From an uncultured archaeon (GTDB taxonomy: Archaea > Asgardarchaeota > Lokiarchaeia > Sigyniarchaeales > SOKP01), in contig CAZGJX010000082.1 of assembly GCA_964525635.1 (NCBI GenBank), positions 1 through 21,052 of the forward strand: a DNA stretch of 21,052 nt, given 5' to 3'. Every line of letters begins with the position of its first letter. Positions within the stretch are counted from its first letter, which is position 1. The position numbers were made by a program, and so were the translations under genes. The notes under the pieces were generated by a model, which saw only the letters and a program-made list of their open reading frames with translations, was not told the origin of the DNA and did not search any database. Below are positions 534-21,052 of the stretch, in pieces.

Positions 534-851
534 ATGATATTTAAAATGGCCAAAACAATAACAACACGCTTACCTGATGATATGGTCGAGGAAGTTGAAA
601 AAATAGCAGAAATTGAAAAAATTGATAAATCAAGTGTTATTAGAAGGCTTCTAAACAAAGCTATTCCAAAATGGAAATTAGAATATGCATCAAAATTATA
701 TCAAGATAAAAAGATTTCAATAGGAAAGGCAGCAGAAATATGTTCCTTATCAATTTGGGAGATTTTAGAATATTTTTCAAAAAAAAAAATCCCATTAAAT
801 TATGATTTAGAGGATTTTAATGATGATTTAAGAATTATTGATGAATTATGA
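534..851 (+). CDS. Antitoxin-like protein, RHH plus UPF0175 domain
   Basis: N-terminal RHH pattern (TITTRLPDDMVEEVEKIA...DKSSVIRRLL) and UPF0175-like C-terminus (LYQDKKISIGKAAEICSLSIWE). ATGA overlap with the PIN gene. The start may be ATG 546. Confidence 0.8.
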   Translation: MIFKMAKTITTRLPDDMVEEVEKIAEIEKIDKSSVIRRLLNKAIPKWKLEYASKLYQDKKISIGKAAEICSLSIWEILEYFSKKKIPLNYDLEDFNDDLRIIDEL

Positions 852-1351
852 AAGATTATACTATTATTTCAGATACAACTCCCTTATTAGCTTTTATTAA
901 AAAAAACGAGTTAAATCTCTTAAAAAAACTCTTTATTGAAATAATTATACCAGAAGCGGTTTATGATGAAATATTAAATATTCCTAAAAATTTGGGAAAT
1001 GAAATAAGAATTTTACAGGAAGAAATGAAAAAAAATTGGATTTCTAAAAGAAAAATAAAATCCCCAAAATATTCAGATTTAGGATTAGGAAAAGGTGAGA
1101 ATGAAGCTATAAATTTATGTACTGAATTTGAAAAATCGCTACTATTAATTGATGAAAAAAAGGGACGAAATATTGCAAAATCCTTGAATATAAAAATATT
1201 AGGAACTCTTGGTATTTTAAATTTGATAAAGAAAAAAGATCTAAAAAATAATAAAGAACTTATTCAAAATATTGATCTTCTTCTTAAAAAAGGATTTTAT
1301 CTTTCTAGCGAAGTAATTTTAAATTTTATTAATAATTTAGAAAACAAATAA
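848..1351 (+). CDS. PIN-domain (DUF3368-like/VapC) toxin
   Basis: IISDTTPL, IPEAVYDE, LGKGENEAI, LLIDEKKGR and GTLGIL motifs typical of DUF3368-type PIN proteins. Coupled to the upstream antitoxin. Confidence 0.85.
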   Translation: MKDYTIISDTTPLLAFIKKNELNLLKKLFIEIIIPEAVYDEILNIPKNLGNEIRILQEEMKKNWISKRKIKSPKYSDLGLGKGENEAINLCTEFEKSLLLIDEKKGRNIAKSLNIKILGTLGILNLIKKKDLKNNKELIQNIDLLLKKGFYLSSEVILNFINNLENK

Positions 1352-1662: not shown

Positions 1663-2328
1663 ATGAAAAAAGATTTATTAAATAAAGATGAACAAATTAT
1701 CTATGAAATTATAAAGGAATATATAAAGAAAAAACCATTCAACAGATTAATTGATGTAATTGATTTTATAAATTATCGCTTAAAATCAAAAAATAATTTT
1801 AATAGGAATAGAATTGAGAAAATAGTTAAAAATCTAATTAAAAATAAAAATATTGTCATAGGAATTAGACTAACGAAAGATGATGTATTAGAATTACCTG
1901 TTCGAAAAAATATCTATGAATATATTTTAAAAAATCCTGGAATCAATATAAATGATATAAAGAAAGAATTTAATATAGGAAGTAATAGTGCTCAATGGCA
2001 TCTTAAAATCTTAGAAAACTTTGATTTTATTAGGGTACATGGTTTTGAGAGTCAAAAGAATCTTTTTAATTTCAGATCTAATCCTAAGAATGATATTTTA
2101 CATATAATTCTGAGGAATGAAAAAGTAAAATCTATATTGGAAGTATTAAAAACTAATGAAAAGCCTCTCAGACCAACAGTATTATCTGAAATGGTTTCAA
2201 TACATTATAATACAATTAAAAAATATTTAAAAAAATTAGTTGAACTAAATCTAATAAAAAAAGTAAATGGAGATAAGAAAAAAAGATATATTTTAAATAA
2301 AAATTGGAATAAAACCCTATATCTCTAA
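1663..2328 (+). CDS. Multi-domain winged helix-turn-helix transcriptional regulator
   Basis: ArsR-like wHTH (RKNIYEYILKNPGININDIKKEFNIGSNSAQWHLKILE), a second C-terminal wHTH (LSEMVSIHYNTIKKYLKKLVELNLI) and an N-terminal wHTH-like domain. Confidence 0.8.
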   Translation: MKKDLLNKDEQIIYEIIKEYIKKKPFNRLIDVIDFINYRLKSKNNFNRNRIEKIVKNLIKNKNIVIGIRLTKDDVLELPVRKNIYEYILKNPGININDIKKEFNIGSNSAQWHLKILENFDFIRVHGFESQKNLFNFRSNPKNDILHIILRNEKVKSILEVLKTNEKPLRPTVLSEMVSIHYNTIKKYLKKLVELNLIKKVNGDKKKRYILNKNWNKTLYL

Positions 2329-2420
2329 AATATTATAAATTAAAAAAAAAAAATATGAAAGATAGAGGATGATTTTATAAAGGTAAAAAAAAAAATAGAT
2401 TAAAAAAAGAGTCTAAAATT

Positions 2421-2442
2421 AAAAATTTCACTTTTGGTCCAA
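2421..2442 (+). promoter_or_regulatory. Putative operator motif, copy 1, just upstream of a TATA-like box
   Basis: AAAAATTTCACTTTTGGTCCAA, 19/22 identical to 6570-6591, followed by TTTAAAT at 2448. Confidence 0.45.
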
Positions 2443-2482
2443 AGCTCTTTAAATTTTATAAAAAAAATGAGTTATATGACTC

Positions 2483-2950
2483 ATGGTTTTAATAAAATCT
2501 AGAGTAATTAATTCGAATGGAATATTTTTGATTAAAAAAGAAGAAGAGATGAAAAATGAAGTAAAAATTATTTTAAAAAAAAAACAAAAAATGCCAATAT
2601 TTAAAATAATCAATCAAATGTACGATAATGGAAAAATCTCAGAGGATTTCAAAAGAAATGATATTGAAAGGATTTTAAAAGAAATGATAAGAAAGAAAAT
2701 GATTATTGTAGCCCCAGAATTAACAAAACAAGATATATTTGTATCAATAACGAAAAGAAATATCTTATCTTATATAAATAATAATCCTGGTAATACTATT
2801 GAAGATTTATTTGAAAACATTGGAATTAAAAAAAGTAAACTAATCTGGCATTTAACTATTTTAGAAAAATATCAATATATAAAATCTTTGAAATCCAACA
2901 GAAAAAAAGCATACTATATAGATAATCATACTACAGGAGGGATGAATTAG
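2483..2950 (+). CDS. Winged helix-turn-helix regulator, shorter paralog of 1663..2328
   Basis: RNDIERILKEMI, LTKQDI and RNILSYINNNPG...WHLTILEKY align with the first regulator, but the last wHTH is absent. Ends 2 nt before the next start. Confidence 0.75.
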   Translation: MVLIKSRVINSNGIFLIKKEEEMKNEVKIILKKKQKMPIFKIINQMYDNGKISEDFKRNDIERILKEMIRKKMIIVAPELTKQDIFVSITKRNILSYINNNPGNTIEDLFENIGIKKSKLIWHLTILEKYQYIKSLKSNRKKAYYIDNHTTGGMN

Positions 2951-2952
2951 AT

Positions 2953-5900
2953 ATGATAGAAAATCTAAGAAAGAACATTAAAAAAAATAAAAGAACTTAT
3001 TTCGTTATATTCATATTTTTGTCAATAATTATATCTCAAACAAATTCGATGAATTTGATTAAATTTGAAATAAATAATAAATCGAATTTAGATATTTCAG
3101 CAACTATTGAATCACCAATATTTATTAATGGAACGGCAACAGGTATTGGTGCTCAAAATTGGACATGGGCGAAAAATCAAACTTGGTGTACTGGGGAAGG
3201 CATAATTGGAGATCCTTATCGTATTGAGAATATTATCATTGATGGAAATGATATGGGAAGTTGTATTACTATTGTAAATTCTAATGCTCATTTAATAATT
3301 GAAAATTGTAGTTTTACATCTTCAGGTATTCTCCAAACTAATGCAGGTATTGAGATGATAAATGTAGGCAATACAATCATAATGAACTCTTCTATAAGTA
3401 GAAATGGAAATTATGGAATATATCTTAATAATTGCATTAATGTTACCATCGAGGATAATAACATAAAGATTAATAAAAAACATGGTGTTTATGTAGAATA
3501 CAGTAAAGATATAAATCTAAAATGGAATAAAATAAATTATAATGGAAATTTTTATAGTGATATTCTTGATGATGGAATTCATCTGTATTATACTAATCAA
3601 TCCAATGTCCAAGAAAATAATCTCAGTTTTAATGCAGATGATGGAGTTGAAATCTATTATAGTCTAAATACGGGTATCTTTAAAAATACAATATATAACA
3701 ATAGAAGTATACGTTCAATCAATACATTGCATATGAGTGGTGTCTCAACTTTTACATCTAATTATACAAAAATTAGAAATAATGATATTTATGATGTTAC
3801 ACAAGGTATAAGTACAGGTCATTATCACTCTATAATTGAAAATAATAACATTAGTTTAATAAATGCTTTTGGTATCAAAATTGGTAGTGGATATAACCAT
3901 TCAATTAGAAATAATTATCTTCAAGATATTGGTGATAGAGGTATATATATATCAACAGGTAATAAATCTATTGTCGAAGGAAATATAATTGATTATGTTG
4001 TTAATTATGGAATTGAGATATTAATGGATAATTGTACTATATATAATAATACTATTTCTCATAGTGTCCGTGCTATTAATCTAAAAATTACAGGATTCTG
4101 TAATATCTCATATAATAAAATGATGAGTAATGGTTATGGAATTTACTTTTATTCTAATGGTCATGATTATATTATAGAGGGGAATAATATGACAAATTGT
4201 GGTATTGGAATTCAGAATAGGCCTTATTTAGATTTCCTAACATCCTTTAATATAGATTTATCGAATAAAGTCAATGAAAAGACAATTTATTCCTATTATA
4301 ATACCTCAAATTTAGATAATTCAGATTTCTTAACAAATGGAGCTCCAGGTCAAATAATTTTAGTTAATTGTAATGATACAATTATCACCGATTTTGAAAT
4401 TACTAATAGTTCCCATGCTATTTCTCTGTTTTTCTGTAATAATGCTAGTATAATGAATTGTAATCTAAGTTATAATTCTCAAAGTGGAATTCTTAAATAT
4501 GGAGCAACAGATTATAAAAATAAAATCGTAAATAATACTCTCTCATTCAATTCCTTAGATGGGATTACTTCATGGTCATCTGGCAATCCTACAATAATAG
4601 AGGGTAATTATATAGAAAACAATACAGAACAAGGAATAAATATTGAAGGTGGAACATCCTATATTATTTACAATAATACAATTAGATATAATGGGATTAA
4701 TGGTATTTTTATTAATGCAGGAATAAATAATATTTCCCTAAATAAAATAATTGGTAATCGAGAGAATGGTATTTATAACCGCGGTGCTGAAAGTAATATT
4801 ACTTCAAACACTATTTCATATAATAATCAAAGTGGAATTTATAATGGAAATGCAAATAATAACAGTATTGTATCTAATATTATTTCCAATAATTTAGAAT
4901 ATGGAATTAATATTTTTAATTCACCTTACAGCAGTTTTTCTTATAATAATTTAAGTAATAATAATTATGGCGTACGTATTATATCTGGTATGGATTGTAT
5001 ATTTAATGATAACAATATTGAAAATAGTTCTAATGGAATTCAAATAGAATTTGATAACGATGGTTTAATTATCTCAAATAACTCTCTTATTAATAGTGAT
5101 ATCACTTTTGCTGAGGATATTGGTGAAATTTCAAATTTAATAATTCCTTTGACAAATACAATTAATGAAAAATTAGTCTATTGGTACTCAGATAAGAACT
5201 TTTTATCTTCAGATAATTTCACTTTTAAGGGCTTTCCTGGAAAAATAATATTGGCTAATTGTAATTATTCTACCATCGATAATGTAAACTTATTAAATGG
5301 AGCTGGAATAACACTATTATTATGTTCTAATATAACAATTCAAAATTGTGAAATTATCAATAATATCAATGATGGGATTTATTGTATTTTCTCCCAAGAT
5401 ATTGATATAATGAATAATACTATAAATAATAATTTTGGAAATGGAATTAGTTATATAAACACTGACATCGATATATTTGGAAACATTATAAGCAATAATA
5501 GTAAAATTGGGATTAAGGGTGATGGAGAATATAGTAGGATTATAGATAATAATATAATATATAATGAAGAATACGGAATATCATTATTGGTAAGAAATAT
5601 TGAATTAAATTATAATAATATCAGTTATAATAAAGAATTAGGTATTTATTTATATTATATTGATGAAGGTATAATTTTAAATAATTCAATTTCATTCAAT
5701 GGACAATATGGAATGTTATTATCCCAAAGTTATAAGTTATATATACAAGAGAATGATTTGTTCTATAATGATATTGGTATTATTATTTATGGTTCCTCAT
5801 CTAATAATACAATATATTTGAATAATTTCATAGGTAATATAATAAATGCTGTGGATAATTCTTCAAATAATTATTGGGATAATGGGTCAATAGGAAACTA

Positions 5901-6465
5901 TTGGGATGATTATAATGGAATAGATTTAGATAATAATGGTATAGGGGATACACCATATAATATTAGTGGAAGTGCGAATGCAGTTGATAACTTTCCTATT
6001 ATACTAAAAGAAATTACAAAAATTTCTGACAACCTAGTGATATTAATAATACCTCTAATAATTATTACTGGTCTAATTGGGATTGTTATCGTAGAGTATT
6101 TTATCTCTGATATACTTAAGAAAAAGAAAGTTAAAAAAAGTATAAAAGAACCTATATTGGATGGAACTACTCTTGAATTAATTGATGATTTTAATATAAT
6201 TTCACAATCAGAAGATAAGACCTTTGAAGCAATGTTAAAAACTATGCCAGATTTGAAAAATTATATTGAGTCTAATAAAATGATTAAAGATGTACCCAAA
6301 ATACATAATTATATGACGGGTATAATAGATTCATCTCTATTTGGAAAAATAGAACTACTTGATTTATCACTAGAAGAAAAAGGTCGCTTCATAAAAGAAT
6401 TATTAAATTTAGATTCAAAAGAAAGAATAAAACTTATAGATGAAATGCTAGAAAATAAAGAATAA
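2953..6465 (+). CDS. Membrane-anchored right-handed beta-helix (NosD/CASH-like) protein with cytoplasmic C-terminal domain
   Basis: N-terminal basic plus hydrophobic signal, many IxNNxIxxNxxxGI repeats, NosD-type end GNYWDDYNGIDLDNNGIGDTPY, TM helix LVILIIPLIIITGLIGIVIV then KKKK, and a charged tail of about 115 aa. Confidence 0.85.
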   Translation: MIENLRKNIKKNKRTYFVIFIFLSIIISQTNSMNLIKFEINNKSNLDISATIESPIFINGTATGIGAQNWTWAKNQTWCTGEGIIGDPYRIENIIIDGNDMGSCITIVNSNAHLIIENCSFTSSGILQTNAGIEMINVGNTIIMNSSISRNGNYGIYLNNCINVTIEDNNIKINKKHGVYVEYSKDINLKWNKINYNGNFYSDILDDGIHLYYTNQSNVQENNLSFNADDGVEIYYSLNTGIFKNTIYNNRSIRSINTLHMSGVSTFTSNYTKIRNNDIYDVTQGISTGHYHSIIENNNISLINAFGIKIGSGYNHSIRNNYLQDIGDRGIYISTGNKSIVEGNIIDYVVNYGIEILMDNCTIYNNTISHSVRAINLKITGFCNISYNKMMSNGYGIYFYSNGHDYIIEGNNMTNCGIGIQNRPYLDFLTSFNIDLSNKVNEKTIYSYYNTSNLDNSDFLTNGAPGQIILVNCNDTIITDFEITNSSHAISLFFCNNASIMNCNLSYNSQSGILKYGATDYKNKIVNNTLSFNSLDGITSWSSGNPTIIEGNYIENNTEQGINIEGGTSYIIYNNTIRYNGINGIFINAGINNISLNKIIGNRENGIYNRGAESNITSNTISYNNQSGIYNGNANNNSIVSNIISNNLEYGINIFNSPYSSFSYNNLSNNNYGVRIISGMDCIFNDNNIENSSNGIQIEFDNDGLIISNNSLINSDITFAEDIGEISNLIIPLTNTINEKLVYWYSDKNFLSSDNFTFKGFPGKIILANCNYSTIDNVNLLNGAGITLLLCSNITIQNCEIINNINDGIYCIFSQDIDIMNNTINNNFGNGISYINTDIDIFGNIISNNSKIGIKGDGEYSRIIDNNIIYNEEYGISLLVRNIELNYNNISYNKELGIYLYYIDEGIILNNSISFNGQYGMLLSQSYKLYIQENDLFYNDIGIIIYGSSSNNTIYLNNFIGNIINAVDNSSNNYWDNGSIGNYWDDYNGIDLDNNGIGDTPYNISGSANAVDNFPIILKEITKISDNLVILIIPLIIITGLIGIVIVEYFISDILKKKKVKKSIKEPILDGTTLELIDDFNIISQSEDKTFEAMLKTMPDLKNYIESNKMIKDVPKIHNYMTGIIDSSLFGKIELLDLSLEEKGRFIKELLNLDSKERIKLIDEMLENKE

Positions 6466-6569: not shown

Positions 6570-6591
6570 AAAAATTTCAATTCTAGTCCAA
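6570..6591 (+). promoter_or_regulatory. Putative operator motif, copy 2, just upstream of a TATA-like box
   Basis: AAAAATTTCAATTCTAGTCCAA, followed by TTTATAT at 6599. Confidence 0.45.
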
Positions 6592-6648
6592 TGGGTTTTT
6601 TATATCATTCATAATGTGTTCTATTTATATAAACCAGAGTGAATTGAA

Positions 6649-9465
6649 ATGAAATCATATAAAAAAAAAAACATATGGATATTTGCTTTTTTAGCAATAA
6701 TCATTTCTAATCTTGTATTCATATCATTAGATATAGTTGAGACAGATTTACCAAAAGAAGAAAAAGAATTCTCTGTATATTCTTCTTATACTAGTGTATC
6801 TTCCATCTTTATAAATGGAACTGCAAACGGTATAGGAGCAAGAAACTGGACTTGGGCAGAAAGTCAAACATGGTGTTCTGGTAATGGTACTGTAGATGAA
6901 CCATATATAATTACAGGTTTATCTATAGATGGCCAAGGTAATTCAATACCTATATATATCATTAATTCAGATAAATATTTCAATATAACAAATTGTATTC
7001 TTTTTAATTCAATCGAAGCAGACTATGATAATCTATATAGAGCTGGAATTGTTCTTGAGAATGTTTTAAACGGAAGAATTAGAAATAATAATTGTTCTAA
7101 TAATAATGCTAATGGAATAAGTATCCGAAATTCTATAAATGTCACTATCCGAGACAACATTATGGATGCTAATTATTGGGGTGGCATAAGAATAAACGCG
7201 AGTGAGGATATGATTATACTCAATAATACTATTAAAAATAGTGATTATTATGATGCTTATGGTATTTATATGCATAATTCTAACAATTCATTTATTCTTG
7301 ATAACAAAATCAGTTTTCTCAATGATGGAATTTATCAGATTGGGAATGATTGTATTATAGAAAATAATACATTAGAAGATATTCAATATATTTCAATATA
7401 TATTGAAGGGAATAATATAAATATAAGAAATAATACTGTTAGAAATGTAATGGGCTTAGGTATATTTCTTGGTGCTCTCACACATAACGTAACAATTGAA
7501 AAAAATTTACTTGACAAAGGTGGTGACTATGGAATACTTATAAATGGAAATAATATAACTGTATTCAATAATACAGTTGGAAATTTTACATATTGCATTT
7601 ATCTCTGGGAAGATAGTGATCATGTCAATTGTACAAATAATATTATAAAGGGAAGTTTAAATACATACAATGTAGGAATTCGTTTGTATATAAATGGGAA
7701 ATTCTATACAATTGATGAAAATAAGATGATAAATTGTGGTATTTCTACTACTCCAAGATCAAATCAAGGAAGAATAAATATAACTACATCTAATACAGTA
7801 GATGATAAACCAATTTATTATTATTATAATAGATCTGGTTTAAATACTCTGGATTTCACACATATAGGCGCTCCTGGACAAATTATTTTATGGAATTGTA
7901 ATAATTCACAAATATCTAATTTTAAAATATCTGTTAATAATTTTACAGTTCCTATTATGGGATTCTACTGTAATGATCTACTTTTTTATAATAATACATT
8001 TAGTAATAATATTTTAGGTATTCATCTCGAATATTCCAATTTTCTAAATATATCCAATAATATATTATCCTATAATTGGAGACGTGGAATTAGTTTTGGA
8101 TGTTGTTATAATGTATCTGTTATAAATAATACGATTTATAATAATGGTGATGATGGTATATGGTTTTCAGATTCTACAATAGAAGTTATTAATAATAAAA
8201 TTTACAGAAATAAGGGGAGTGGTTTAAATGTTTATTCATTTAATGAAATACGTGCTGATTATAATAGAATATTGAATAATACAATTATAAATAATCTCGA
8301 AGATGGTTTAAAAATATCTACAAACTGTGAATTGAAAATATCAAACAATAATATAAGCAACAATAAATACTATGGAATACATTTCTCCAATGATAATTAT
8401 ACCTTAATTTTAAATAATACATTCTATAGAAATGGCGCAGAGGGTATTCGTTTTGTAAATGGAAAGATTGGTTTAATAAAAAATAATACATTCGAAGAAA
8501 ATGGAATCAGATATCCATCTTCATCATGTATCCTATTGCATGGACCTGACAATATTGAGATAACTGAAAATAATTTTATTAATACAGATGTAGGAGTCCA
8601 TTTAACAAGCTATTCTGAGAATAATACTATTTATCTAAATAAATTTATAGAGAACGACATAAATGCAATTGATGATGGGTATAATAATCAATGGGATAAT
8701 GGAACAATTGGAAATTATTGGGATGACTATATTGGAATAGATTTAAATCATGATAATATAGGAGATTTACCATATACTAGTATTGATGGCTCCGCCGATA
8801 GTCAAGACCGATATCCTATATGGAATAATAATGTTTTACCATCACCAATTTGGAACGAGATACCTATTAATCAAACAATTGAACTTGGTAATAATTTCTC
8901 TTATAGAGTAGATGCTTTTAGTCCTTTAGAAATTAATTATTATACATTAAATCTAACAATTTTTACTATCGATGCAAATGGGCTTATAACAAATGAAAGT
9001 ATTCTTAGCGTTGGTGATTATTGGATTAAAATCCATGCATTTGATATGTATAATCAAAATTGTACAGCAACAATTAAAATTACAGTTGAAGATACAATTG
9101 GACCTACATGGGATACCACTCCATCAGATCAGATTATTGAATATTATGATACCTTTATATACGATGTAGATGCTTCTGATCTTTCTGGGATAGAATATTA
9201 TTGGATTAATGATGAGGTTAATTTTAATATTAATAATATTACAGGACAAATAACAAATGCTACTGTTTTAGAAGCAGCTAATTATGAATTAGTAATAAGA
9301 GCTTATGATCCATATGGAAACTATTGTGAAGAAACAATCAAAATTACAGTTATTACCCCAGAAGAGCAAATTATTCCTGGTTATGATATACTATTTATTA
9401 TATCTCTAATTGGAGCTTTAACGATTTTGATTTTGCTTTATAAAAATCCTAAAATTAAAAACTAA
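6649..9465 (+). CDS. Cell-surface beta-helix (NosD/CASH-like) protein with two cadherin-like domains and IPGY-TM (Loki-CTERM/PGF-CTERM-like) sorting signal
   Basis: Signal sequence, the same N-cap as 2953..6465 (IFINGTAxGIGAxNWTWA), beta-helix repeats, GNYWDDY, two ~85-aa Ig/cadherin-like repeats, then IPGY, a hydrophobic helix and KNPKIKN. Confidence 0.85.
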   Translation: MKSYKKKNIWIFAFLAIIISNLVFISLDIVETDLPKEEKEFSVYSSYTSVSSIFINGTANGIGARNWTWAESQTWCSGNGTVDEPYIITGLSIDGQGNSIPIYIINSDKYFNITNCILFNSIEADYDNLYRAGIVLENVLNGRIRNNNCSNNNANGISIRNSINVTIRDNIMDANYWGGIRINASEDMIILNNTIKNSDYYDAYGIYMHNSNNSFILDNKISFLNDGIYQIGNDCIIENNTLEDIQYISIYIEGNNINIRNNTVRNVMGLGIFLGALTHNVTIEKNLLDKGGDYGILINGNNITVFNNTVGNFTYCIYLWEDSDHVNCTNNIIKGSLNTYNVGIRLYINGKFYTIDENKMINCGISTTPRSNQGRINITTSNTVDDKPIYYYYNRSGLNTLDFTHIGAPGQIILWNCNNSQISNFKISVNNFTVPIMGFYCNDLLFYNNTFSNNILGIHLEYSNFLNISNNILSYNWRRGISFGCCYNVSVINNTIYNNGDDGIWFSDSTIEVINNKIYRNKGSGLNVYSFNEIRADYNRILNNTIINNLEDGLKISTNCELKISNNNISNNKYYGIHFSNDNYTLILNNTFYRNGAEGIRFVNGKIGLIKNNTFEENGIRYPSSSCILLHGPDNIEITENNFINTDVGVHLTSYSENNTIYLNKFIENDINAIDDGYNNQWDNGTIGNYWDDYIGIDLNHDNIGDLPYTSIDGSADSQDRYPIWNNNVLPSPIWNEIPINQTIELGNNFSYRVDAFSPLEINYYTLNLTIFTIDANGLITNESILSVGDYWIKIHAFDMYNQNCTATIKITVEDTIGPTWDTTPSDQIIEYYDTFIYDVDASDLSGIEYYWINDEVNFNINNITGQITNATVLEAANYELVIRAYDPYGNYCEETIKITVITPEEQIIPGYDILFIISLIGALTILILLYKNPKIKN

Positions 9466-9535: not shown

Positions 9536-9907
9536 GTGCTTTCTGAAATACTTGCTTATCCTTTTGGTATAGTTCAGTTAATATTTACTGAGTATTATAT
9601 TATCCGTTCTATTAATAAACAGATTAATCAAGTTGATACTATATTGAATAAATTAATTAAATCTAGTTCAAATATGTCTATGAATGTATCAAATATAGCG
9701 ACAGAATTAGCTGGAAGTGCTAGGGAAGTGAATGCCGCTTCAGAAGAAATATCAACTACCACACAAGAAATTGCAGATATAATACAAAACATTTATTCGG
9801 TTTCAAGAAGTATTAAGGAAATTATGAATCTTGTAAACAGTATTTCGGATCAAACAAATTTATTGGCTTTTAATTATACAATAATTAAAATTAGAGATAT
9901 GTTATAG
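9536..9907 (+). pseudogene. Methyl-accepting chemotaxis protein fragment
   Basis: ATELAGSAREVNAASEEI...ISDQTNLLAFN is the start of the MCP signalling hairpin. The expected continuation (AxIEAARAGExGRGFAVVA) is missing and the N-terminus looks truncated. Confidence 0.7.
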
Positions 9908-11291: not shown

Positions 11292-12302
11292 TTATGTAAA
11301 AATCTCTTTAATTAACCACTTTAAGGGTTCTATTAATAGTGGAGATTGCTGAGAAACATTTAGTGAATAAAATTTCAATGGAATATCTTTTTTATTTTTT
11401 AATTCTTTTAGCTTAAAAAATTTCTTAATTTCTTTTTCTCTTAAAGATGTCTTACTTTTAAAGGTATTATTTATAATTAAAAGTGGAATTTTACCAAGTA
11501 TTTTATTTAAATAAGAAGATATGAAATTCTCAATGAATATATTAACTTCATTAAAGCTATTTTTGTCTTTATTTTTAATAATATAAATTATTGCTTGAGC
11601 GTTCTCTAATTCAACATTACCTTCTGAAAATCTGGATGTACTTGGAATAATAATGTTATCAATTAAAACAGATAGAACTCTAGTGGAAATGTCCAATTTT
11701 CTTTGGCTATAAAATTGGATTGTTTCAATTGTTTTTAAAAAAGTATTTTTACCAGATCCTTTTGGTCCTAAGAGATAGACCTTTTTTTAAAGATTTATAT
11801 CTTGTGTAATAATTTTAATCTCTGATTCTGGAAATAATAAATTATAATAATTATCATAAAGAGAAAAAAATTCCACATTATCCTTTTTGCAATACTCAGT
11901 AAATTGTTTTATGGATGGATCTTTTTTATATTTATGCAAAACTAAGTTAAAATTTGGGAGATTTTTTAACTCAGATGCGAATTTTTCTAAAATGGATTGT
12001 TTTGAATTTAAATATTTTAGGATATCAGTGAGTTCATTTTTAAAATATGATGCTCGGATTATATAGGAAATCATTATTAAATCTTGCCCTCCTCTAGCAA
12101 GTTTAGATTCCATATAAAAAATAGTATTTATTGTCTGAAATTTTCGAAAAGAAAAAATAAATGTGCCTTCAACAGTACCAAATTCTAAAATTCTCGGTAA
12201 ATCGGGAAATTCATAAATATTTTTAATATCTAATTTACAATAAAGAATATTAGGACCTATACGCATGTCAAAATATGAAATAACTAAAAATTTTTCTATC
12301 AA
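11292..12302 (-). pseudogene. Longin/uDENN-like domain fused to a small GTPase-like domain, interrupted by one in-frame TAA (11787-11789)
   Basis: ORFs 11787..12302 and 11292..11696 share a frame. After the TAA the frame stays open as KKVYLLGPKGSGKNTFLKTIETIQFYSQRKLDISTR. The N-terminal part has SYFDMRIGP and LARGG longin motifs. Confidence 0.75.
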
Positions 12303-14034: not shown

Positions 14035-14475
14035 CTATTGAAGTAACTCATATAGTTTATTCTTTTCTGAAAAATAAAGAAGAAGCTCCTCTATATTTTC
14101 TGGTCCATTAAGTATATATTTATCATATTCATAAATTTTTTCTTTTATTGATTTAGAGAAAGACGCAAGTTGTTTTATTCTCGCGTTTCTATCCTTTTTA
14201 GGACCATCTGATCCAAAATATGAATTTATTTCTTGAATTATTTTAGCTATCTTATCTGCTCCAATTCTGCAGAGAGCAGAATGTAAATAAGTTGCGTCAT
14301 TACCAGTTGAATTATAGTAATACTGCATTAAACCACCATTACCAACTTCATAATCCATATTCATAACAATTGCAAACGTTTGCTCTGCATTTGTTAGATG
14401 ATCCCACCCAATAGATTCTTCACGCTCGGAAATTTTTAAATAAATCTGATCAACGCTATAATCTTTAGATGTCAA
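14035..14475 (-). CDS. DUF4375 / DMP19-family protein
   Basis: EVGNGGLMQYYYNSTG...ALCRIGA matches the EVxNGGFxQ(F/Y)xxNSxG...AL..IGA signature. TTG start with GTGAT upstream. Confidence 0.75.
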   Translation of the reverse strand: MTSKDYSVDQIYLKISEREESIGWDHLTNAEQTFAIVMNMDYEVGNGGLMQYYYNSTGNDATYLHSALCRIGADKIAKIIQEINSYFGSDGPKKDRNARIKQLASFSKSIKEKIYEYDKYILNGPENIEELLLYFSEKNKLYELLQ

Positions 14476-14561: not shown

Positions 14562-15842
14562 TTAAGGAGAATTCTTATCATTTAATTTTTCCAATATTTC
14601 TTTAGCATAATCGATTCGAATTTTCTTATCTTTTACTAAAATATTTGCAACTTCCTCAACTAAATGATCTGGAACACCTGCTAATTTAGCTATATTTCTA
14701 GAATGTAATGCCATATGTCCTTTTTGAATTCCCTCAGATGCCAAAGCTCTTAATGCTGCTAGGTTCTGAGCTAAACCTAGTGCTGCAGTAACTTGACAAA
14801 GTTCTTCAGTATCTCTAGTGTTTAGAATTTTTAAAGCTAATTTTGCCATAGGATGGATTTTTGTCATACCCCCAATTATACCTAAAGCAAGAGGTAATTC
14901 TATTTCTCCTACCAAATTACCATTTTCATCTTTATGATATATTGTTAAAGGAGAATATTGACCTTTAAGAGAGGCATATGCATGAGCTCCCGATTCGATG
15001 GCTCGCGTGTCATTCCCTGTAGCCAAAGTGAGGGCTATGATTCCATTCATAATTCCTTTGTTATGAGTTGCGGCTCTATAAGGATCTACTCTGGCAAATT
15101 CATATGCATTTAAGATTGCATCTACAACCTCATCACCACCTAATAATTCTTTATCAAAAGTAGCTGTAGACCTAGCTAATCGATGGGTTGCTAAATTAGA
15201 GACAATTCTTAGGAGGATTTTTCCATTAGTCAAATCTTCTAAATAACAAGTAAGAGCTTCGGCCATTGTGTTTACAACATTAGCACCCATCGCATCCAAT
15301 ACATCCACTAATAAATGAACTATTAACATATTACCAAAATTAGTATTAAATTTGCGAATTTCTATATCAATTGCTCCACCTCCTAATTTAATCAGTAAAG
15401 GATCTTGTTGATTTGCAATCTCTAATATTTTTTGTTTATTTGATAAAATCTTTTTTTCTGCTTCATCCATTTTTTCTAAATTAGTAATTTGTATTTGAGA
15501 AATCATTACAGATTTTACTTTATCTGATTGAAATCCGCCATGTTTTCTGGCAATTCTTGCTGCATTTGAGGCAGCAGCTACGACTGAGGGTTCTTCAATC
15601 ACCATTGGAATTAAATAATCATTTCCATTTATTTTAAAATTACAAGCAATACCCAGGGGTAATTGATAACTTCCAATAACATTTTCAATCATAGTATCTA
15701 ACTGTTCTGGTTTAAAATATCCATATTTTTTCAATAAATCTAATTCATCTTCATTTAATCTTAACTGGTCAGCTATAATCTTTTGCCTTTCTTCAATAGG
15801 TAATTTATAAAAACCAGATATTTTAGAATTAATTTCTTTCAT
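14562..15842 (-). CDS. mvaA: Hydroxymethylglutaryl-CoA reductase, class II
   Basis: ENVIG, EEPSVVAAAS, DAMGAN, RAATHNKGIMNG and GIQKGHMALH motifs. Confidence 0.95.
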   Translation of the reverse strand: MKEINSKISGFYKLPIEERQKIIADQLRLNEDELDLLKKYGYFKPEQLDTMIENVIGSYQLPLGIACNFKINGNDYLIPMVIEEPSVVAAASNAARIARKHGGFQSDKVKSVMISQIQITNLEKMDEAEKKILSNKQKILEIANQQDPLLIKLGGGAIDIEIRKFNTNFGNMLIVHLLVDVLDAMGANVVNTMAEALTCYLEDLTNGKILLRIVSNLATHRLARSTATFDKELLGGDEVVDAILNAYEFARVDPYRAATHNKGIMNGIIALTLATGNDTRAIESGAHAYASLKGQYSPLTIYHKDENGNLVGEIELPLALGIIGGMTKIHPMAKLALKILNTRDTEELCQVTAALGLAQNLAALRALASEGIQKGHMALHSRNIAKLAGVPDHLVEEVANILVKDKKIRIDYAKEILEKLNDKNSP

Positions 15843-16023: not shown

Positions 16024-17652
16024 TTAATCAATAATATGATTTGCTTTTATATATAATGGAGCCCAATTAAGGTAACCTCTCTGAATAGAAGCTTCATCTC
16101 CCATTTCTATTCTACGGATTTCATATTCTAAATTACTTTGTTTACTAACATTATCTGCGACTCTTACTAATCCTTTGTTTAAAAAGCTATAATCAAATGA
16201 GTTAGCATGAATTGGATCAGATATTAATTTTGCATATAATGGGAAAAATCTTTCATGAAATCCTTTATGACCTTTTGGACAATAATTTAATCCTTCTATA
16301 TTTGGAATTATACAACCATCATCACAGAATCTAAGGAAAAAACCTCTATTATCATTCAATTCATGTTCTTCTACTTTTCCTACAATAAAATCAGGTTTAA
16401 TTGTACCTTTCTTTATTAATTCATATTCTTCAACACTTTTTCTTTCTTTATTATGTCGAATAAAATCATTAATCTGTGGTCCCTTTTTAACAATGTCTTT
16501 GAATCCATATTTAACTTTTAACAATCCAGAAATGCAAGTAGCTCCAGATCCATAAGATCCAAAATAAATAGAATCATTTTCTTTAGCGAAATTTTCAAGT
16601 ATATAGATTATTTGAGCCCATACTGAAGCATTATACATATTACCGAAATGCATTGGCACTGAAAGATGTGGTAATATTCTTCCTTTTACACTAGAAACAA
16701 CCCAATTGGAGAGTTTTTCTAATTTTTCCGAGGAAAATCCTCTTTCTTTAAGATTTAGATAAACATATTCTGGTAAAACACTAATATCTTTTAAGAAAGA
16801 ATCCAATTTCCTGAATATTGAAGATTTTATTTCTTTTGTATTTATATTCAATAAATTGTTAAGATTATTACTCCATCTTTTTTCAATTATCTGTTGTACA
16901 ACTTTTAAAGGCATTTTTGAGAATGGTGCATGAAAAGCATAATAATCGGCATAGACATTCCCTATATTTTGAATTAAATCATCATATGCATCTAATTGAA
17001 GCTTTAAGTAACTGTCTAAAGAATATTTTCCAAAAACTTGTGCATTTGTTTCATTAGCAGGTCTCCAAAAATCATTAATATTTGCAGATACTTTCCCAAA
17101 TTTTTCACCAAAAGTAGCAATCCGAGGATTTTTTGTAAGAACTAGAGCAACTGCTCCAGAGCCTTGTGTTGGTTCACTTGGACTTTCTAACGGATATGAT
17201 GAAATATCTGCACTGATCACTAAAGCTTTATTAATCACACCTTTATCTATTAAGGCAATTGCATTCAAAACAGCTAAAGTGCCTCCAGCACATGCGTTAT
17301 ATATATCTTGAGTCAAACAATTAGGTGAAACACCTAATAGTTCAGCAAAAATATTTGAAACAGATTTAACGGCATAGGTTATTGTTTCTGTACCTACAAA
17401 AATAGCATCAATTTCTTTAGGATCTATATTACCTCTAAGCAATGCATGATAACCTGCTTTTAGACCGATTGAGACAATATCTTCATCTACTTCGGCTAAT
17501 CGCATTTCTTTAAGCATTAAACCTACTTTGAATTTATTCGGATCAATATTTCTTGCTTTAGCTAGTTCTTCTATATTAACATAATACCGTGGAGCATTAA
17601 ACCCCATTGAATCTATTCCAATATCTGTGAATAAATAATCATTTCCTATCAT
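16024..17652 (-). CDS. mvaS: Hydroxymethylglutaryl-CoA synthase with internal insertion and C-terminal Zn-ribbon/DUF35-like extension
   Basis: E89 (GTET), C121 (NACAGG), EPTQGSGAVA, DFWRP, H241 (FHAPF), GNMY and SYGSG motifs. Adjacent to HMGR. Confidence 0.9.
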   Translation of the reverse strand: MIGNDYLFTDIGIDSMGFNAPRYYVNIEELAKARNIDPNKFKVGLMLKEMRLAEVDEDIVSIGLKAGYHALLRGNIDPKEIDAIFVGTETITYAVKSVSNIFAELLGVSPNCLTQDIYNACAGGTLAVLNAIALIDKGVINKALVISADISSYPLESPSEPTQGSGAVALVLTKNPRIATFGEKFGKVSANINDFWRPANETNAQVFGKYSLDSYLKLQLDAYDDLIQNIGNVYADYYAFHAPFSKMPLKVVQQIIEKRWSNNLNNLLNINTKEIKSSIFRKLDSFLKDISVLPEYVYLNLKERGFSSEKLEKLSNWVVSSVKGRILPHLSVPMHFGNMYNASVWAQIIYILENFAKENDSIYFGSYGSGATCISGLLKVKYGFKDIVKKGPQINDFIRHNKERKSVEEYELIKKGTIKPDFIVGKVEEHELNDNRGFFLRFCDDGCIIPNIEGLNYCPKGHKGFHERFFPLYAKLISDPIHANSFDYSFLNKGLVRVADNVSKQSNLEYEIRRIEMGDEASIQRGYLNWAPLYIKANHIID

Positions 17653-18102: not shown

Positions 18103-18840
18103 ATGGCGAGCAAATTAGAAGAACTTAGTAAATTGGCTAGTAAATTATTACCTCAACATGTAGGAATAATTCCGGATGGAAATCGCAGATGGGCTATGTT
18201 AAATAAAGTCAATACTGAGATAGGACATCTCAAAGGTTATAATAGTTTAAAAAAAATATTATATAGTTTTTTTGATGCAGGAATTCAATATTTAACAGTT
18301 TATGCTCTTTCTTTAGAAAATGCATACAATAGACCAAAGGAAGAACTCAAATATATTTATAAAATCATTATCAAAGCAATTGATACAATTATTAAAGAAG
18401 AAGATACTGTAAAAAATGAAGTAAGATTTAGAGTTATTGGGAGATTATCATTGTTACCTGAAGAAGTAAGACAAAAGGTTAATGAATTACATGAATTTAC
18501 TAAGAAGTTTAATAAGAATTTTGTAAACCTACTTATAATGTATGATGGTCAAGCAGAAATTGCTGATGCTGTTAAAGAAATTGTCAGAAAAAAAATAAAT
18601 CCTGAAGATATTGATAGAAGTCTCATTAAACAATATTTATACACTTATGATTTCCCTGAAGTTGATTATATTATACGAACAGGAATGAATGATGGAGCAA
18701 GAATTTCTGGATTTTTACTCTGGGATGCTTCATATGCAGAATTTAAATTTCATAATGAATTATGGCCTGAATATAATGAAAGTCTCTTAATTGAAGATTT
18801 AGAGGATTATGTTCGGAGAAATAGAAGAAAAGGGGAATGA
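18103..18840 (+). CDS. uppS: cis-prenyltransferase (polyprenyl/undecaprenyl diphosphate synthase)
   Basis: HVGIIPDGNRRWA, YALSLEN, IIRTG, RISGFLLW and C-terminal RxG (RRKG). Confidence 0.93.
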   Translation: MASKLEELSKLASKLLPQHVGIIPDGNRRWAMLNKVNTEIGHLKGYNSLKKILYSFFDAGIQYLTVYALSLENAYNRPKEELKYIYKIIIKAIDTIIKEEDTVKNEVRFRVIGRLSLLPEEVRQKVNELHEFTKKFNKNFVNLLIMYDGQAEIADAVKEIVRKKINPEDIDRSLIKQYLYTYDFPEVDYIIRTGMNDGARISGFLLWDASYAEFKFHNELWPEYNESLLIEDLEDYVRRNRRKGE

Positions 18841-19129: not shown

Positions 19130-21052
19130 ATGAAATATAAAAGTAAATTACAAAAAGTTGTTTTCTTTCTATTTGTTTCTAGCCTCGTATTTACTATAAT
19201 TTTTTCAAATATATCAGAGACTCTTAATATATCAACAGATAAGATTAACAATGATAAAAATAGTATAAACACTTCTGCAAGCGTTTCTCTACTTTGGAGT
19301 TATACTTTATCAGATGAAATAGATTCTTCTCCAGCATTAGGTGATTTAAATAATGATGGAAACCTTGATGTTGTAGTTGGATGTGATGATGGTCATTTAT
19401 ATGCATTCAATGGTCAGAATGGAGATCTTTTATGGAGTGATTTTTGGGGAAATACTCGTATAAGTTCTTCTCCTGCTTTAGCAGATATAGATGGCGATGG
19501 AAATCTTGAAGTAATTGTTGGATCAGATGGTGCTGATATATTAGCATTTAATGGACAGGATGGTTCAGAAATTTGGGCTAAATTTATTAATGGAGCATAT
19601 TTTCCTGGTTCTCCTGCTATAGCTGATATTGATGGAGATGGATTGCTTGAAATCGTAATAGGTTCTGATAATTTATTTTTTGGTAGTATGATTTATGCTC
19701 TAAATGCTGAGGATGGTTCTACACTCTGGTCTTATTCTTGTGATTCTTCTGTATATAGTTCACCAGCTATAGGTGATATAAATAATGATGGAAATCTAGA
19801 AATAATTGTAGTTAAATCATCTGATAGGATTGAAGCATTAAATGGTACAGATGGTAGTTGGCTTTGGACCTATATGACATCACGTAGTATAGCAGCTTCT
19901 CCTTCATTAGGAGATGTCGATGGAGATGGAGTATTAGAAGTAATAGTAGGTTCTAGTTCTACTTCAGCATACTATAATTATATGTATGCAATTAATGGTG
20001 AAAATGCTGGGCAACGATGGAGATGCTCATATACTTCTGAGATAGATTCATCAGCAGGATTAGGTGATATTGATGGGGATGGAAAACTAGAAGTTGCTTT
20101 TGGAGATAATGATGGAATCATATATGCGTTAAATGGTGAAAGTGGAAGTCAGATATGGAGTTATTCTACTGGAAATAGCATTTTATCATCTCCAACCATG
20201 GCAGATATGGATAATAATAATTTAGTTGATATAATTGTTGGAAGTAGTGATAATAACGTTTATGCTTTAAACGGATTGGATGGAAGTGTTCTCTGGACTT
20301 ACCTAACTGGAGGCGTAGTAAGGTCCTCTCCTGTATGTGGTGATCTAGATGGTGATGGTATTCTTGAGGTTGTTGTAGGAAGTAGGGATAATACATTATA
20401 TGCATTAGATCCGACACCTTCAGGAGAAATAATATATTGGCAAGGACTATCAGGAGATAATTCATTTAGAAGATGTAAGAGTCAAGATAAATTTGATCCT
20501 GATTTTGATCTTCTTTCATATAAGAATGAAAATCTTTATGGAACTGATGAATTAAATTCTGATACAGATAGTGATGGAATGCCTGATGGTTGGGAGATTT
20601 ACAATTCATTAAATCCTCTTCTAAATGATGCAAATAATGATCCTGATGGTGATTCTCTTAATAATATTGGAGAATATAATTATAATTCGGATCCTAATAA
20701 TATTGATACTGATAATGATGGAATTACTGACGGTGTAGAGGTTAATACTTATAATACGGATCCCACTAATTCAGATACGGATTCTGATGATCTTTCTGAT
20801 CCTGATGAATTATTTACTCATGGTACTGATCCTCTTAATGATGATACAGATGGAGATAATCTTGATGATGGAGATGAAATTAATATTTATAGTACAGATC
20901 CTAATAATCCCGATTCAGATTCTGATGGATTAAATGATAGACAGGAAATTATTGATTATGGCACAAATCCTAATGATAGTGATTCTGATAATGATGATCT
21001 TACTGATTATGAAGAAGTAAATACATATAGTACAGATCCTAATGATAGTGAT
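19130..21052 (+). CDS. Secreted FG-GAP/PQQ-like 8-blade beta-propeller with thrombospondin type-3-like Ca-binding repeats (3' end outside window)
   Basis: ATG 19130, open for 641 codons to the window end. Signal MKYKSKLQKVVFFLFVSSLVFTIIF, eight SSPAxGDxDxDGxLEVVVG repeats, then at least eight DTDxDGLxDxxE...TDP repeats. Confidence 0.9.
   Translation, partial: MKYKSKLQKVVFFLFVSSLVFTIIFSNISETLNISTDKINNDKNSINTSASVSLLWSYTLSDEIDSSPALGDLNNDGNLDVVVGCDDGHLYAFNGQNGDLLWSDFWGNTRISSSPALADIDGDGNLEVIVGSDGADILAFNGQDGSEIWAKFINGAYFPGSPAIADIDGDGLLEIVIGSDNLFFGSMIYALNAEDGSTLWSYSCDSSVYSSPAIGDINNDGNLEIIVVKSSDRIEALNGTDGSWLWTYMTSRSIAASPSLGDVDGDGVLEVIVGSSSTSAYYNYMYAINGENAGQRWRCSYTSEIDSSAGLGDIDGDGKLEVAFGDNDGIIYALNGESGSQIWSYSTGNSILSSPTMADMDNNNLVDIIVGSSDNNVYALNGLDGSVLWTYLTGGVVRSSPVCGDLDGDGILEVVVGSRDNTLYALDPTPSGEIIYWQGLSGDNSFRRCKSQDKFDPDFDLLSYKNENLYGTDELNSDTDSDGMPDGWEIYNSLNPLLNDANNDPDGDSLNNIGEYNYNSDPNNIDTDNDGITDGVEVNTYNTDPTNSDTDSDDLSDPDELFTHGTDPLNDDTDGDNLDDGDEINIYSTDPNNPDSDSDGLNDRQEIIDYGTNPNDSDSDNDDLTDYEEVNTYSTDPNDSD
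20495..21052 (+). repeat. Coding tandem repeats of about 23 aa (TSP3-like)
   Basis: For example DTDNDGITDGVEVNTYNTDPTNS, DTDSDDLSDPDELFTHGTDPLND, DSDSDGLNDRQEIIDYGTNPNDS. Confidence 0.85.

Follow-up and report, generated by a model that had tools for sequence, protein, structure and literature searches.

How might an archaeon carry an event at its surface to its genes when no kinase stands in between? The question is raised by a gene cluster in an uncultured archaeon of the Lokiarchaeia (Sigyniarchaeales; GenBank assembly GCA_964525635.1), in which two paralogous winged helix-turn-helix (wHTH) proteins, wH1 and wH2, are encoded directly ahead of BH1, a receptor-like beta-helix protein with a cytoplasmic tail. 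Asgard archaea are the closest prokaryotic relatives of eukaryotes, and their environmental sensing is little understood. The window analyzed here is the entire 21-kb contig C82 (CAZGJX010000082.1; 21,052 nucleotides, nt), from a genome of 4.45 Mb with a very low G+C content. In the reading that we favor, and consider reasonably probable, the BH1 receptor docks a winged-helix factor and thereby couples an outside event to promoters bearing a specific motif. This reading rests on domain anatomy, on conservation of the tail and of the N-terminal domain (wN) of the wHTH proteins, on their linkage and fusion, and on conservation of the motif. From these we infer that the factor docks physically and that wH1 and wH2 bind DNA, as well as the ligand, the part played by wH2 and the sense in which the switch works.

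Open reading frame (ORF) calls in the window give four genes on the + strand in the order wH1, wH2, BH1 and BH2, with the following features (aa, amino acids; TM, transmembrane; PWM, position weight matrix; HMM, hidden Markov model; AF2, AlphaFold2).

1663..2328, + strand: wH1, a 221-aa soluble protein with three winged-helix units (Pfam and AF2), namely wN at aa 1-75 (1663-1887), HTH_24 at aa ~76-136 and a TrmB/HTH_11-like unit at aa ~150-215
2421..2446, + strand: motif 1, AAATTTCAC-TTTTG-GTCCAAAG, operator-like, 37 nt before the wH2 start, PWM score 32.2
About 2448-2465, + strand: TATA-like run after motif 1, upstream of wH2
2483..2950, + strand: wH2, a 155-aa short paralog with a diverged wN and one HTH_24 unit (Pfam, wN HMM)
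2953..6465, + strand: BH1, a 1170-aa type-I single-pass receptor-like protein (Pfam, hydrophobicity scan)
BH1 aa ~14-31, + strand: signal-anchor, a basic-hydrophobic N-terminus
6034-6105 (BH1 aa ~1028-1051), + strand: hydrophobic TM helix, followed by KKKKVKK
6118-6462 (BH1 aa 1056-1170), + strand: C-terminal cytoplasmic tail of ~115 aa
6238..6462 (BH1 aa 1096-1170), + strand: helical tail domain of ~72 aa, HMM E 3.6e-23
6570..6595, + strand: motif 2, AAATTTCAA-TTCTA-GTCCAATG, operator-like, 54 nt before the BH2 start, PWM score 29.7
Before BH2, + strand: TATA-like TTTTTATAT, downstream of motif 2
6649..9465, + strand: BH2, a 938-aa surface protein (Pfam hits; ortholog in the same position in another genome, G001)

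The genes for wH1, wH2 and BH1 form a single same-strand cluster (1663-6465). The initial annotation of this cluster had described a gap of 2 nt between the wH2 stop and a 1170-aa BH1, a beta-helix ectodomain, a C-terminal TM helix and an inner tail of ~115 aa. The ORF coordinates agree with the first two points, and Pfam together with the hydrophobicity scan agrees with the others. It had also noted the absence of a kinase or receiver domain; indeed, Pfam and NCBIfam scans detected none in wH1, wH2 or BH1. The public gene call begins BH1 at a later methionine (1138 aa), and the 1170-aa start is the one that yields the signal-anchor. Pfam places both beta-helix proteins among the right-handed beta-helices (Beta_helix E 1e-65, 220 bits, and NosD E 2e-55, 188 bits, for BH1; Beta_helix PF13229, 173 bits, and NosD PF05048, 157 bits, for BH2), and the NosD equivalog of NCBIfam stayed below its cut-off (126 bits vs 300). 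BH1 and BH2 share ~33% identity over ~700 aa, the beta-helix of BH2 being paralogous to the ectodomain of BH1. BH2 lacks the tail domain and adds cadherin-like domains and a C-terminal anchor composed of PGYD, a hydrophobic stretch and basic residues.

In G001, an orthologous locus has an identical gene order, with identities of 72% for wH1, 43% for wH2, 55% for BH1, tail included, and 51% for BH2. Among named public relatives, those closest to wH1 belong to metagenome-assembled genomes of Candidatus Lokiarchaeota / Promethearchaeota.

What are the two soluble proteins? Their paralogy, already proposed from a shared N-terminal domain and an LTKxD linker, is confirmed by 34% identity over 120 aa (E 2e-16), a similarity that spans the N-terminal domain, the LTKxD stretch (LTKDD in one and LTKQD in the other) and the first HTH_24 winged helix. 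The wN HMM recognizes both (E 6.8e-24 for wH1, 9.5e-20 for wH2). This N-terminal domain, first taken as an extra domain, is present in both proteins, but is itself a three-helix winged-helix-like unit, which gives wH1 three such units and wH2 two. The AF2 model of wH1, obtained from a 34-row alignment, shows helix-helix-helix-wing three times (pLDDT 90.2, pTM 0.79), and the wN HMM also weakly matches the third unit (E 5e-6). In Pfam, wH1 exceeds the cut-offs of HTH_24 (37.4 bits vs 21.9) and TrmB (31.6 bits vs 25.6), whereas wH2 matches HTH_24 alone (29.4 bits) and lacks the third winged helix. By gathering score and fold, wH1 belongs to the wHTH DNA-binding superfamily, and at the sequence level both proteins match ArsR/TrmB/Lrs14-type DNA-binding families. 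In units 2 and 3 of wH1, the third helix, which occupies the recognition position (H107-119 and H182-194, respectively), carries the invariant residues W112/H113 and T184/K187/Y188. Judging from the model, these residues may be DNA contacts. A Foldseek search with the wH1 model returned tandem winged-helix proteins (RPC34, TFIIIC, ScpB, SelB and ESCRT-II) at TM-scores of 0.25-0.36, and no specific solved homolog.

The tail of BH1 was found first by tblastn, which gave four further genomic copies, then among the neighbors of wH1 paralogs, and then by HMM. The converged HMM detects 15 copies in 14 ORFs of this genome, and the same C-terminal motif occurs on many unrelated membrane proteins encoded next to wH1 paralogs. 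The amphipathic helical unit singled out by the initial annotation, the last 33 residues of BH1, is the best-conserved core of the tail, but the conserved part is larger, at ~72 aa. In the tail alignment (A1) the core reads ..EK..FI.E...L...ER..I...ML, with near-invariant E, F, E and R that correspond to E1142, F1146, E1157 and R1158 of BH1. The AF2 model of the tail is helical, with a confident three-helix core (residues 30-72, pLDDT 85-90) and a less confident N-terminal part. None of the 15 copies has a significant Pfam match, Foldseek against PDB returned nothing significant (best E 5), and the best ESM Atlas match, at 0.84, fell under the useful range. A word-limited homologous-protein search with the BH1 tail region returned BH1 itself only.

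Among 1.84 billion representative proteins, the tail profile matches 303 clusters at E<=1e-3, of which 127 reach E<=1e-10. The domain stands at the C-terminus in 146 of the 150 best public representatives, and a TM-like segment precedes it in 93 of the 97 proteins of at least 200 aa among these. The linker between TM segment and tail is poorly conserved and ranges from 17 to 232 aa (median 57). In a 201-genome sample of the phylum, the tail is found at E<=1e-5 in 32 of the 40 genomes of the window's own family, and weakly in two of the four genomes of another family, while the genomes sampled from 25 further families gave no match; weaker matches also occur in other families within the same order.

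Two variants of the tail were observed. A tandem pair is carried by 12 of the 150 best public representatives, and by a 714-aa receptor of this genome (L004:4651-6792, + strand; G000:C70:12651-14795); such a pair could dock two factor molecules. Small soluble proteins of 87-95 aa consist almost entirely of one tail domain, without a TM segment (L012:4152-4436, - strand; L002:8739-8999, + strand; L005:2031-2306, + strand), and could act as decoys or competitors for wH proteins. The promoter of one such protein, C8_2031, carries a CTCCA-type version of the motif described below.

Is the tail linked to the wHTH proteins? By the wN alignment (A2), this genome has 13 wN ORFs. Of the 14 ORFs with a tail, ten directly adjoin a same-strand wN gene, against ~0.1 adjacent pairs expected by chance if ~4000 genes are assumed. 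Conversely, tail loci harbor 12 of the 13 wN genes, and the thirteenth encodes a wN protein with two TM helices of its own. The association was also followed in 41 relatives by the coordinates of tail and wN matches, which gave 97 tail matches in 25 genomes. A same-orientation wN is nearby for 67 of them: in 49 it follows on the same strand with a start at most 600 nt downstream, typically at a distance of 30-65 nt, and in 18 it lies 0.6-6 kb upstream on the same strand, as in the window. Two layouts therefore recur, either receptor then wH gene, or wH gene, sometimes with a short wH2, then receptor. The association spans at least 10 genera. The outer domains differ among loci (beta-helix; glycoside hydrolase GH9 with carbohydrate-binding module CBM3 and FN3; none known), while the tail and its wHTH partner remain constant. 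The window is a regular instance of this tail-wN module, with a C-terminal tail after a TM helix and an adjacent same-strand wHTH gene bearing wN.

Fused forms point in the same direction. The genome G019 represents a different genus within the family, and four of its ORFs (985-1547 aa) hold the whole system in one chain, in the order signal, beta-helix (with PKD in one of them), TM helix, tail, wN, HTH_24 and HTH_11. Their cytoplasmic parts are 50-60% identical to one another; therefore, the fusion is old and has been maintained. Such fusions are evidence of the Rosetta-stone type, and suggest from sequence that tail and wN act jointly and that the winged-helix protein is located at the membrane. 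A word-limited search for wH1 among longer proteins returned no fused forms. The initial annotation had made its case depend on a tail that is conserved and linked to such wHTH genes; both hold, since the tail is a conserved family linked to wHTH genes within the genome, across genera and by fusion.

The wN family was also seen on membrane proteins of a different kind. A 376-aa protein of this genome (L009:3276-4406, + strand; G000:C19:17276-18406) has two TM helices followed by wN and winged helices, and no tail. Frames with wN of similar length (349-390 aa) are present in G001:C138, G002:C200, G003:C283 and G019:C48. A TM-anchored wH protein of this type would be a second, direct route of tethering the factor family to the membrane.

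Which DNA could the wHTH proteins read? The regions upstream of wH2 and BH2 share the element AAATTTCA(C/A)-N5-(G)TCCAA(A/T)G, followed 6-8 nt later by a TATA-like box. A first, loose regular expression for this motif gave 39 mostly intragenic matches and was replaced by a narrower core pattern and by a PWM derived from 14 sites. After motifs 1 and 2, the next-best site in the window scores 8.0, and strong sites are absent from the upstream region of wH1 itself. The motif also precedes receptor or wH2-receptor genes and neighboring surface genes of the sister loci C13, C10 and C110. The top ~20 sites genome-wide all lie just upstream of a TATA-like box and before genes for signal-peptide proteins, receptors of the sister loci among them; those on C76, C97, C47, C187 and C104 are outside the training set. 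At a threshold of 12, 51 genomic sites are found vs ~24 in shuffles, and therefore only high-scoring sites are meaningful.

The motif is conserved beyond this genome. The G001 locus has it in both corresponding promoters, those of wH2 and BH2, at unchanged positions. When five wH2 promoters (four genomes, two genera) are aligned (A4), an invariant block falls exactly over the motif between diverged A+T-rich spacers, and the BH2 promoter alignment (A5) likewise conserves a block over the motif. Other module types have the same architecture with a variant second half-site, CTCCA, TACCA or TCCCA in place of GTCCA, which paralogous readers of diverged specificity would be expected to give. The half-sites TTTCA and GTCCA are about 11 bp apart and non-palindromic, an arrangement to which a single chain reading DNA through two winged helices would be suited.

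Altogether, the module may work as follows. The beta-helix of BH1 would face outward as that of a type-I surface receptor, and its tail would be the docking site for the neighboring winged-helix proteins, most likely through wN. A change in the ectodomain, probably upon binding of a polysaccharide or surface ligand, would alter docking, so that the factor is released or captured. Free factor would then bind the bipartite TTTCA/GTCCA operator abutting the TATA/BRE (transcription factor B recognition element) region. The putative operator stands at two promoters of the window, those of the wH2-BH1 operon and of BH2; therefore the receptor would be autoregulated and BH2 would be the local output. 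With two DNA-reading winged helices, wH1 would be the effector. The initial annotation had proposed that the tail sequesters or releases the wHTH factors in the manner of an anti-sigma factor. This logic gains from the tail-wHTH linkage and the fusions, and is further backed because a conserved operator-like motif fronts both wH2-BH1 and BH2.

Short wH2-type genes directly precede a receptor gene in six loci (the window, C13, G001:C41, G001:C207, G002:C35 and G019:C32). Most overlap the receptor start by 4 nt, with a gap of 2 nt in the window and of 17 nt in G001:C41, and all six stand behind a motif-bearing promoter. wH2 would therefore be co-transcribed with the receptor and induced alongside it, and it is probably co-translated with it. 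Made together with the receptor and devoid of the third winged helix, wH2 might modulate the system by feedback, in competition for the tail or one half-site. The gene layout agrees with such a modulator or a decoy, as it does with a heterodimer partner or the true tail resident.

Several points weigh against this reading. The docking between tail and wHTH protein is deduced from linkage and fusion of sequences. No wN is found on the contig for 28 of the 97 tail matches in the relatives, many of which are weak or on short contigs, and some tails are real orphans, such as that of C110 and the tail-only small proteins. Adjacent genes co-duplicate, so that module copies are not independent events, and the four G019 fusions probably stem from one event. 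Among the sites ranked highest by the PWM are the 14 that went into it, and the motif may have a reader other than wH1 or wH2. Finally, the nearest solved folds of wH1 are multi-winged-helix scaffolds at low TM-score, with no classic regulator among them. A complex prediction of wH1 with the tail (alignments A3 and A1) gave ipSAE values of 0.09 and 0.16 against a mark of 0.32, and was used neither for nor against binding.

Could the factor instead be set free by regulated proteolysis? The tail, with its bound or fused wHTH part, would be cut from the membrane after ligand binding and would act on DNA, a route that can be likened to that of RsgI (RseP/ClpXP) or of Notch/SREBP. The G019 fusions tether the wHTH part covalently, and so must either be cleaved or bind DNA while at the membrane; moreover, the poor conservation and variable length of the TM-tail linker would agree with a cleavable segment. 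RsgI, the closest functional analogue, needs autoproteolysis and intramembrane proteolysis (PMC10328401). However, the common split form would require no cleavage, and the loci inspected show no conserved protease gene next to the modules. No cleavage motif was seen, although no search aimed at one was made. We therefore regard proteolytic release as unlikely.

Another explanation, which we judge improbable, is that wH1 and wH2 are local regulators of the neighboring surface genes and never touch the receptor. The tail would serve for oligomerization, for anchoring to cytoskeleton or envelope, or for sorting, and its linkage to the wHTH genes would reflect co-regulation and co-duplication. Regulator genes often adjoin their targets, paralogous cassettes that duplicate as units inflate the adjacency counts, and three tails of this genome are orphans (C110, C39 and C10_8739). 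Nevertheless, the wN-type regulator tracks the tail rather than the outer domain, and tail-less surface genes under the motif, BH2 among them, have no wH gene of their own. Unless tail and wN function jointly, it is difficult to see why they should be kept in one chain in four diverged paralogs, and the standalone TM-anchored wH proteins place the family at the membrane.

The last alternative, that the wH proteins are multi-winged-helix adaptors like ESCRT-II, ScpB or RPC34 that link tails to another machine while an unrelated factor reads the motif, is suggested by the best Foldseek matches of wH1 (RPC34, TFIIIC, ScpB, SelB and ESCRT-II scaffolds) and by the ESCRT-type systems for which Asgard archaea are known, but it is very improbable, as the low TM-scores reflect the repeated fold alone, the sequence matches of wH1 and wH2 are to DNA-binding families, and the module-specific motif variants call for a module-specific DNA reader.

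We therefore return to docking of a winged-helix factor by the receptor tail, and ask how it compares with known systems. In Acetivibrio (Clostridium) thermocellum, SigI/RsgI pairs sense biomass and control cellulosome genes (PMC10328401). By analogy, this would be the closest working counterpart, built from unrelated parts. Both systems consist of paralogous pairs, in which a single-pass sensor with varied carbohydrate-related heads is encoded next door to its factor (PMC10328401). Autoregulation through a pair-specific promoter element, proposed for the present module, is another shared trait, and the motif-bearing genes of the sister loci include dockerin enzymes and cohesin proteins, like the targets of SigI. 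In contrast, the partner here is a triple winged-helix protein and there a sigma-70 factor; the putative docking domain is C-terminal on a type-I protein, whereas the anti-sigma domain of RsgI is N-terminal. Pfam and NCBIfam scans found only wHTH families and no sigma-70 region in wH1 or wH2, and no anti-sigma domain in BH1, whose cytoplasmic part is C-terminal and belongs to no Pfam family. To our knowledge, archaea have no sigma factors.

The closest described concept is that of the HAAS-PadR-like dyads of bacteria, in which a standalone wHTH regulator always accompanies a small helical membrane-linked domain, and which were likewise proposed as a kinase-free alternative to two-component systems (PMC11237479). 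The HAAS domain has three helices and a GxP kink, is usually N-terminal on multi-TM proteins and is paired with PadR. The present tail, unlike HAAS, is C-terminal on single-pass proteins and lacks GxP, and its partner is an ArsR/TrmB-like triple wHTH protein. Indeed, GxP is not conserved in the tail alignment, PadR is absent among the 23 Pfam hits of wH1 at E<=0.1, and Pfam HAAS (PF22564, DUF1700/DUF1129-like) matches one of the 15 tails, at E 0.073, and none significantly.

In Bacillus subtilis, the membrane protein SdpI captures the ArsR-type winged-helix regulator SdpR on signal, without phosphorylation. SdpI is multi-pass and has no large ectodomain, unlike BH1, so that the likeness lies in the logic only. 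wH1 scores 25.9 bits with the SdpR model NF033789 against a cut-off of 100, which indicates general ArsR-like similarity only. The G019 fusions resemble ToxR/CadC in that sensor, TM helix and winged-helix part share one chain. In ToxR, the DNA-binding part, an OmpR-type wHTH, is N-terminal and the sensor is C-terminal, outside the cell; the topology of the fusions is thus reversed, the wHTH type differs, and the system of the window is split into separate genes. Full-text literature searches retrieved no paper describing the tail-wHTH module. Both domains and the module are thus new to the searched literature, while the principle of a membrane sensor that holds a transcription factor is already known.

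What does the module control, and what might it sense? In the window, BH2, an adhesin-like beta-helix/cadherin protein, is likely the target gene and the sole visible local output. On C10 and C110, the GTCCA-type motif precedes genes for a GH5 cellulase-dockerin, a GH9-CBM3-dockerin, a cohesin-bearing anchored protein and PKD surface proteins, and other receptors of the family carry GH9/CBM3 heads. Because the motif fronts dockerin/cohesin genes and such heads exist, the module family appears to be tied to a polysaccharide-degrading, cellulosome-like surface system. The same two observations lend indirect support to the initial suggestion that the receptor possibly senses glycans.

C110 (L003) and C10 (L002) are near-duplicate arrays of surface genes, each gene being preceded by a separate copy of the motif, with six sites in C110. 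The 12.6-kb C110 contig encodes a tail-bearing beta-helix receptor and no wH gene; this receptor may depend on the C10 factor. The C-terminus of BH2 (9370-9462) and those of several C10/C110 PKD surface proteins share a similar anchor, '(P)GYD', hydrophobic helix and basic residues, which recalls archaeosortase-type sorting signals; NCBIfam gave no PGF-CTERM match.

A broader reading can be drawn, which we put forward as possible but doubtful: the Lokiarchaeia may have evolved a modular, kinase-free receptor-to-gene family, with interchangeable heads of glycan-related or adhesin-like type, a TM helix, a docking tail, a triple winged-helix factor and a subfamily-specific operator, that governs a cellulosome-like surface system in split and fused forms; in its beta-helix branch, the truncated paralog wH2, co-translated with the receptor, would serve as a built-in decoy for negative feedback. 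Such a family would be an archaeal counterpart of anti-sigma signaling and of eukaryote-style membrane-tethered transcription factors. If docking by the tail is correct, the module would be a lineage-specific answer to the problem of sensing, a kinase-free route from surface to gene with many paralogous receptors (14 in this genome), each with its own DNA-binding partner and promoter mark, and it appears to control surface and polysaccharide-degrading proteins. It supplies testable parts, namely a putative docking domain of 72 aa, a putative partner domain of 75 aa and a putative operator of 20 bp, and the fused variants provide a natural experiment on archaeal transcription factors tethered to the membrane. 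Annotation gains names for two domain families outside Pfam coverage.

The remaining genes of the window are listed below; Rfam and tRNA scans of the window gave no matches.

534-851, + strand: UPF0175/ribbon-helix-helix protein, first gene of a toxin-antitoxin-like pair
848-1351, + strand: second gene of this pair, with a weak DUF3368 match (E 1.8e-4, under the cut-off)
14035-14475: DMP19-like protein
14562-15842, - strand: HMG-CoA reductase
16024-17652, - strand: HMG-CoA synthase-like protein
18103-18840, + strand: cis-prenyltransferase
19130-21052, + strand: large FG-GAP/beta-propeller surface protein with TSP3 repeats, incomplete at the contig end

The two small overlapping genes at 534-1351 (+ strand) resemble a type II toxin-antitoxin pair. 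Directly after BH2, a 123-aa ORF (9536-9907, + strand) with a hydrophobic start partially matches a methyl-accepting chemotaxis signaling domain (E 1.7e-7; 31.7 bits, just below the cut-off of 34.6). It could be either a fragment or a small protein of coiled-coil type. At 11292-12302 (- strand), a 134-aa ORF covers positions 80-173 of the Arf small-GTPase profile, its C-terminal half only, and is preceded by a 171-aa ORF without a family match; this region may be a split or interrupted small GTPase gene. Finally, the genes between 14562 and 18840 form an isoprenoid-lipid cluster.

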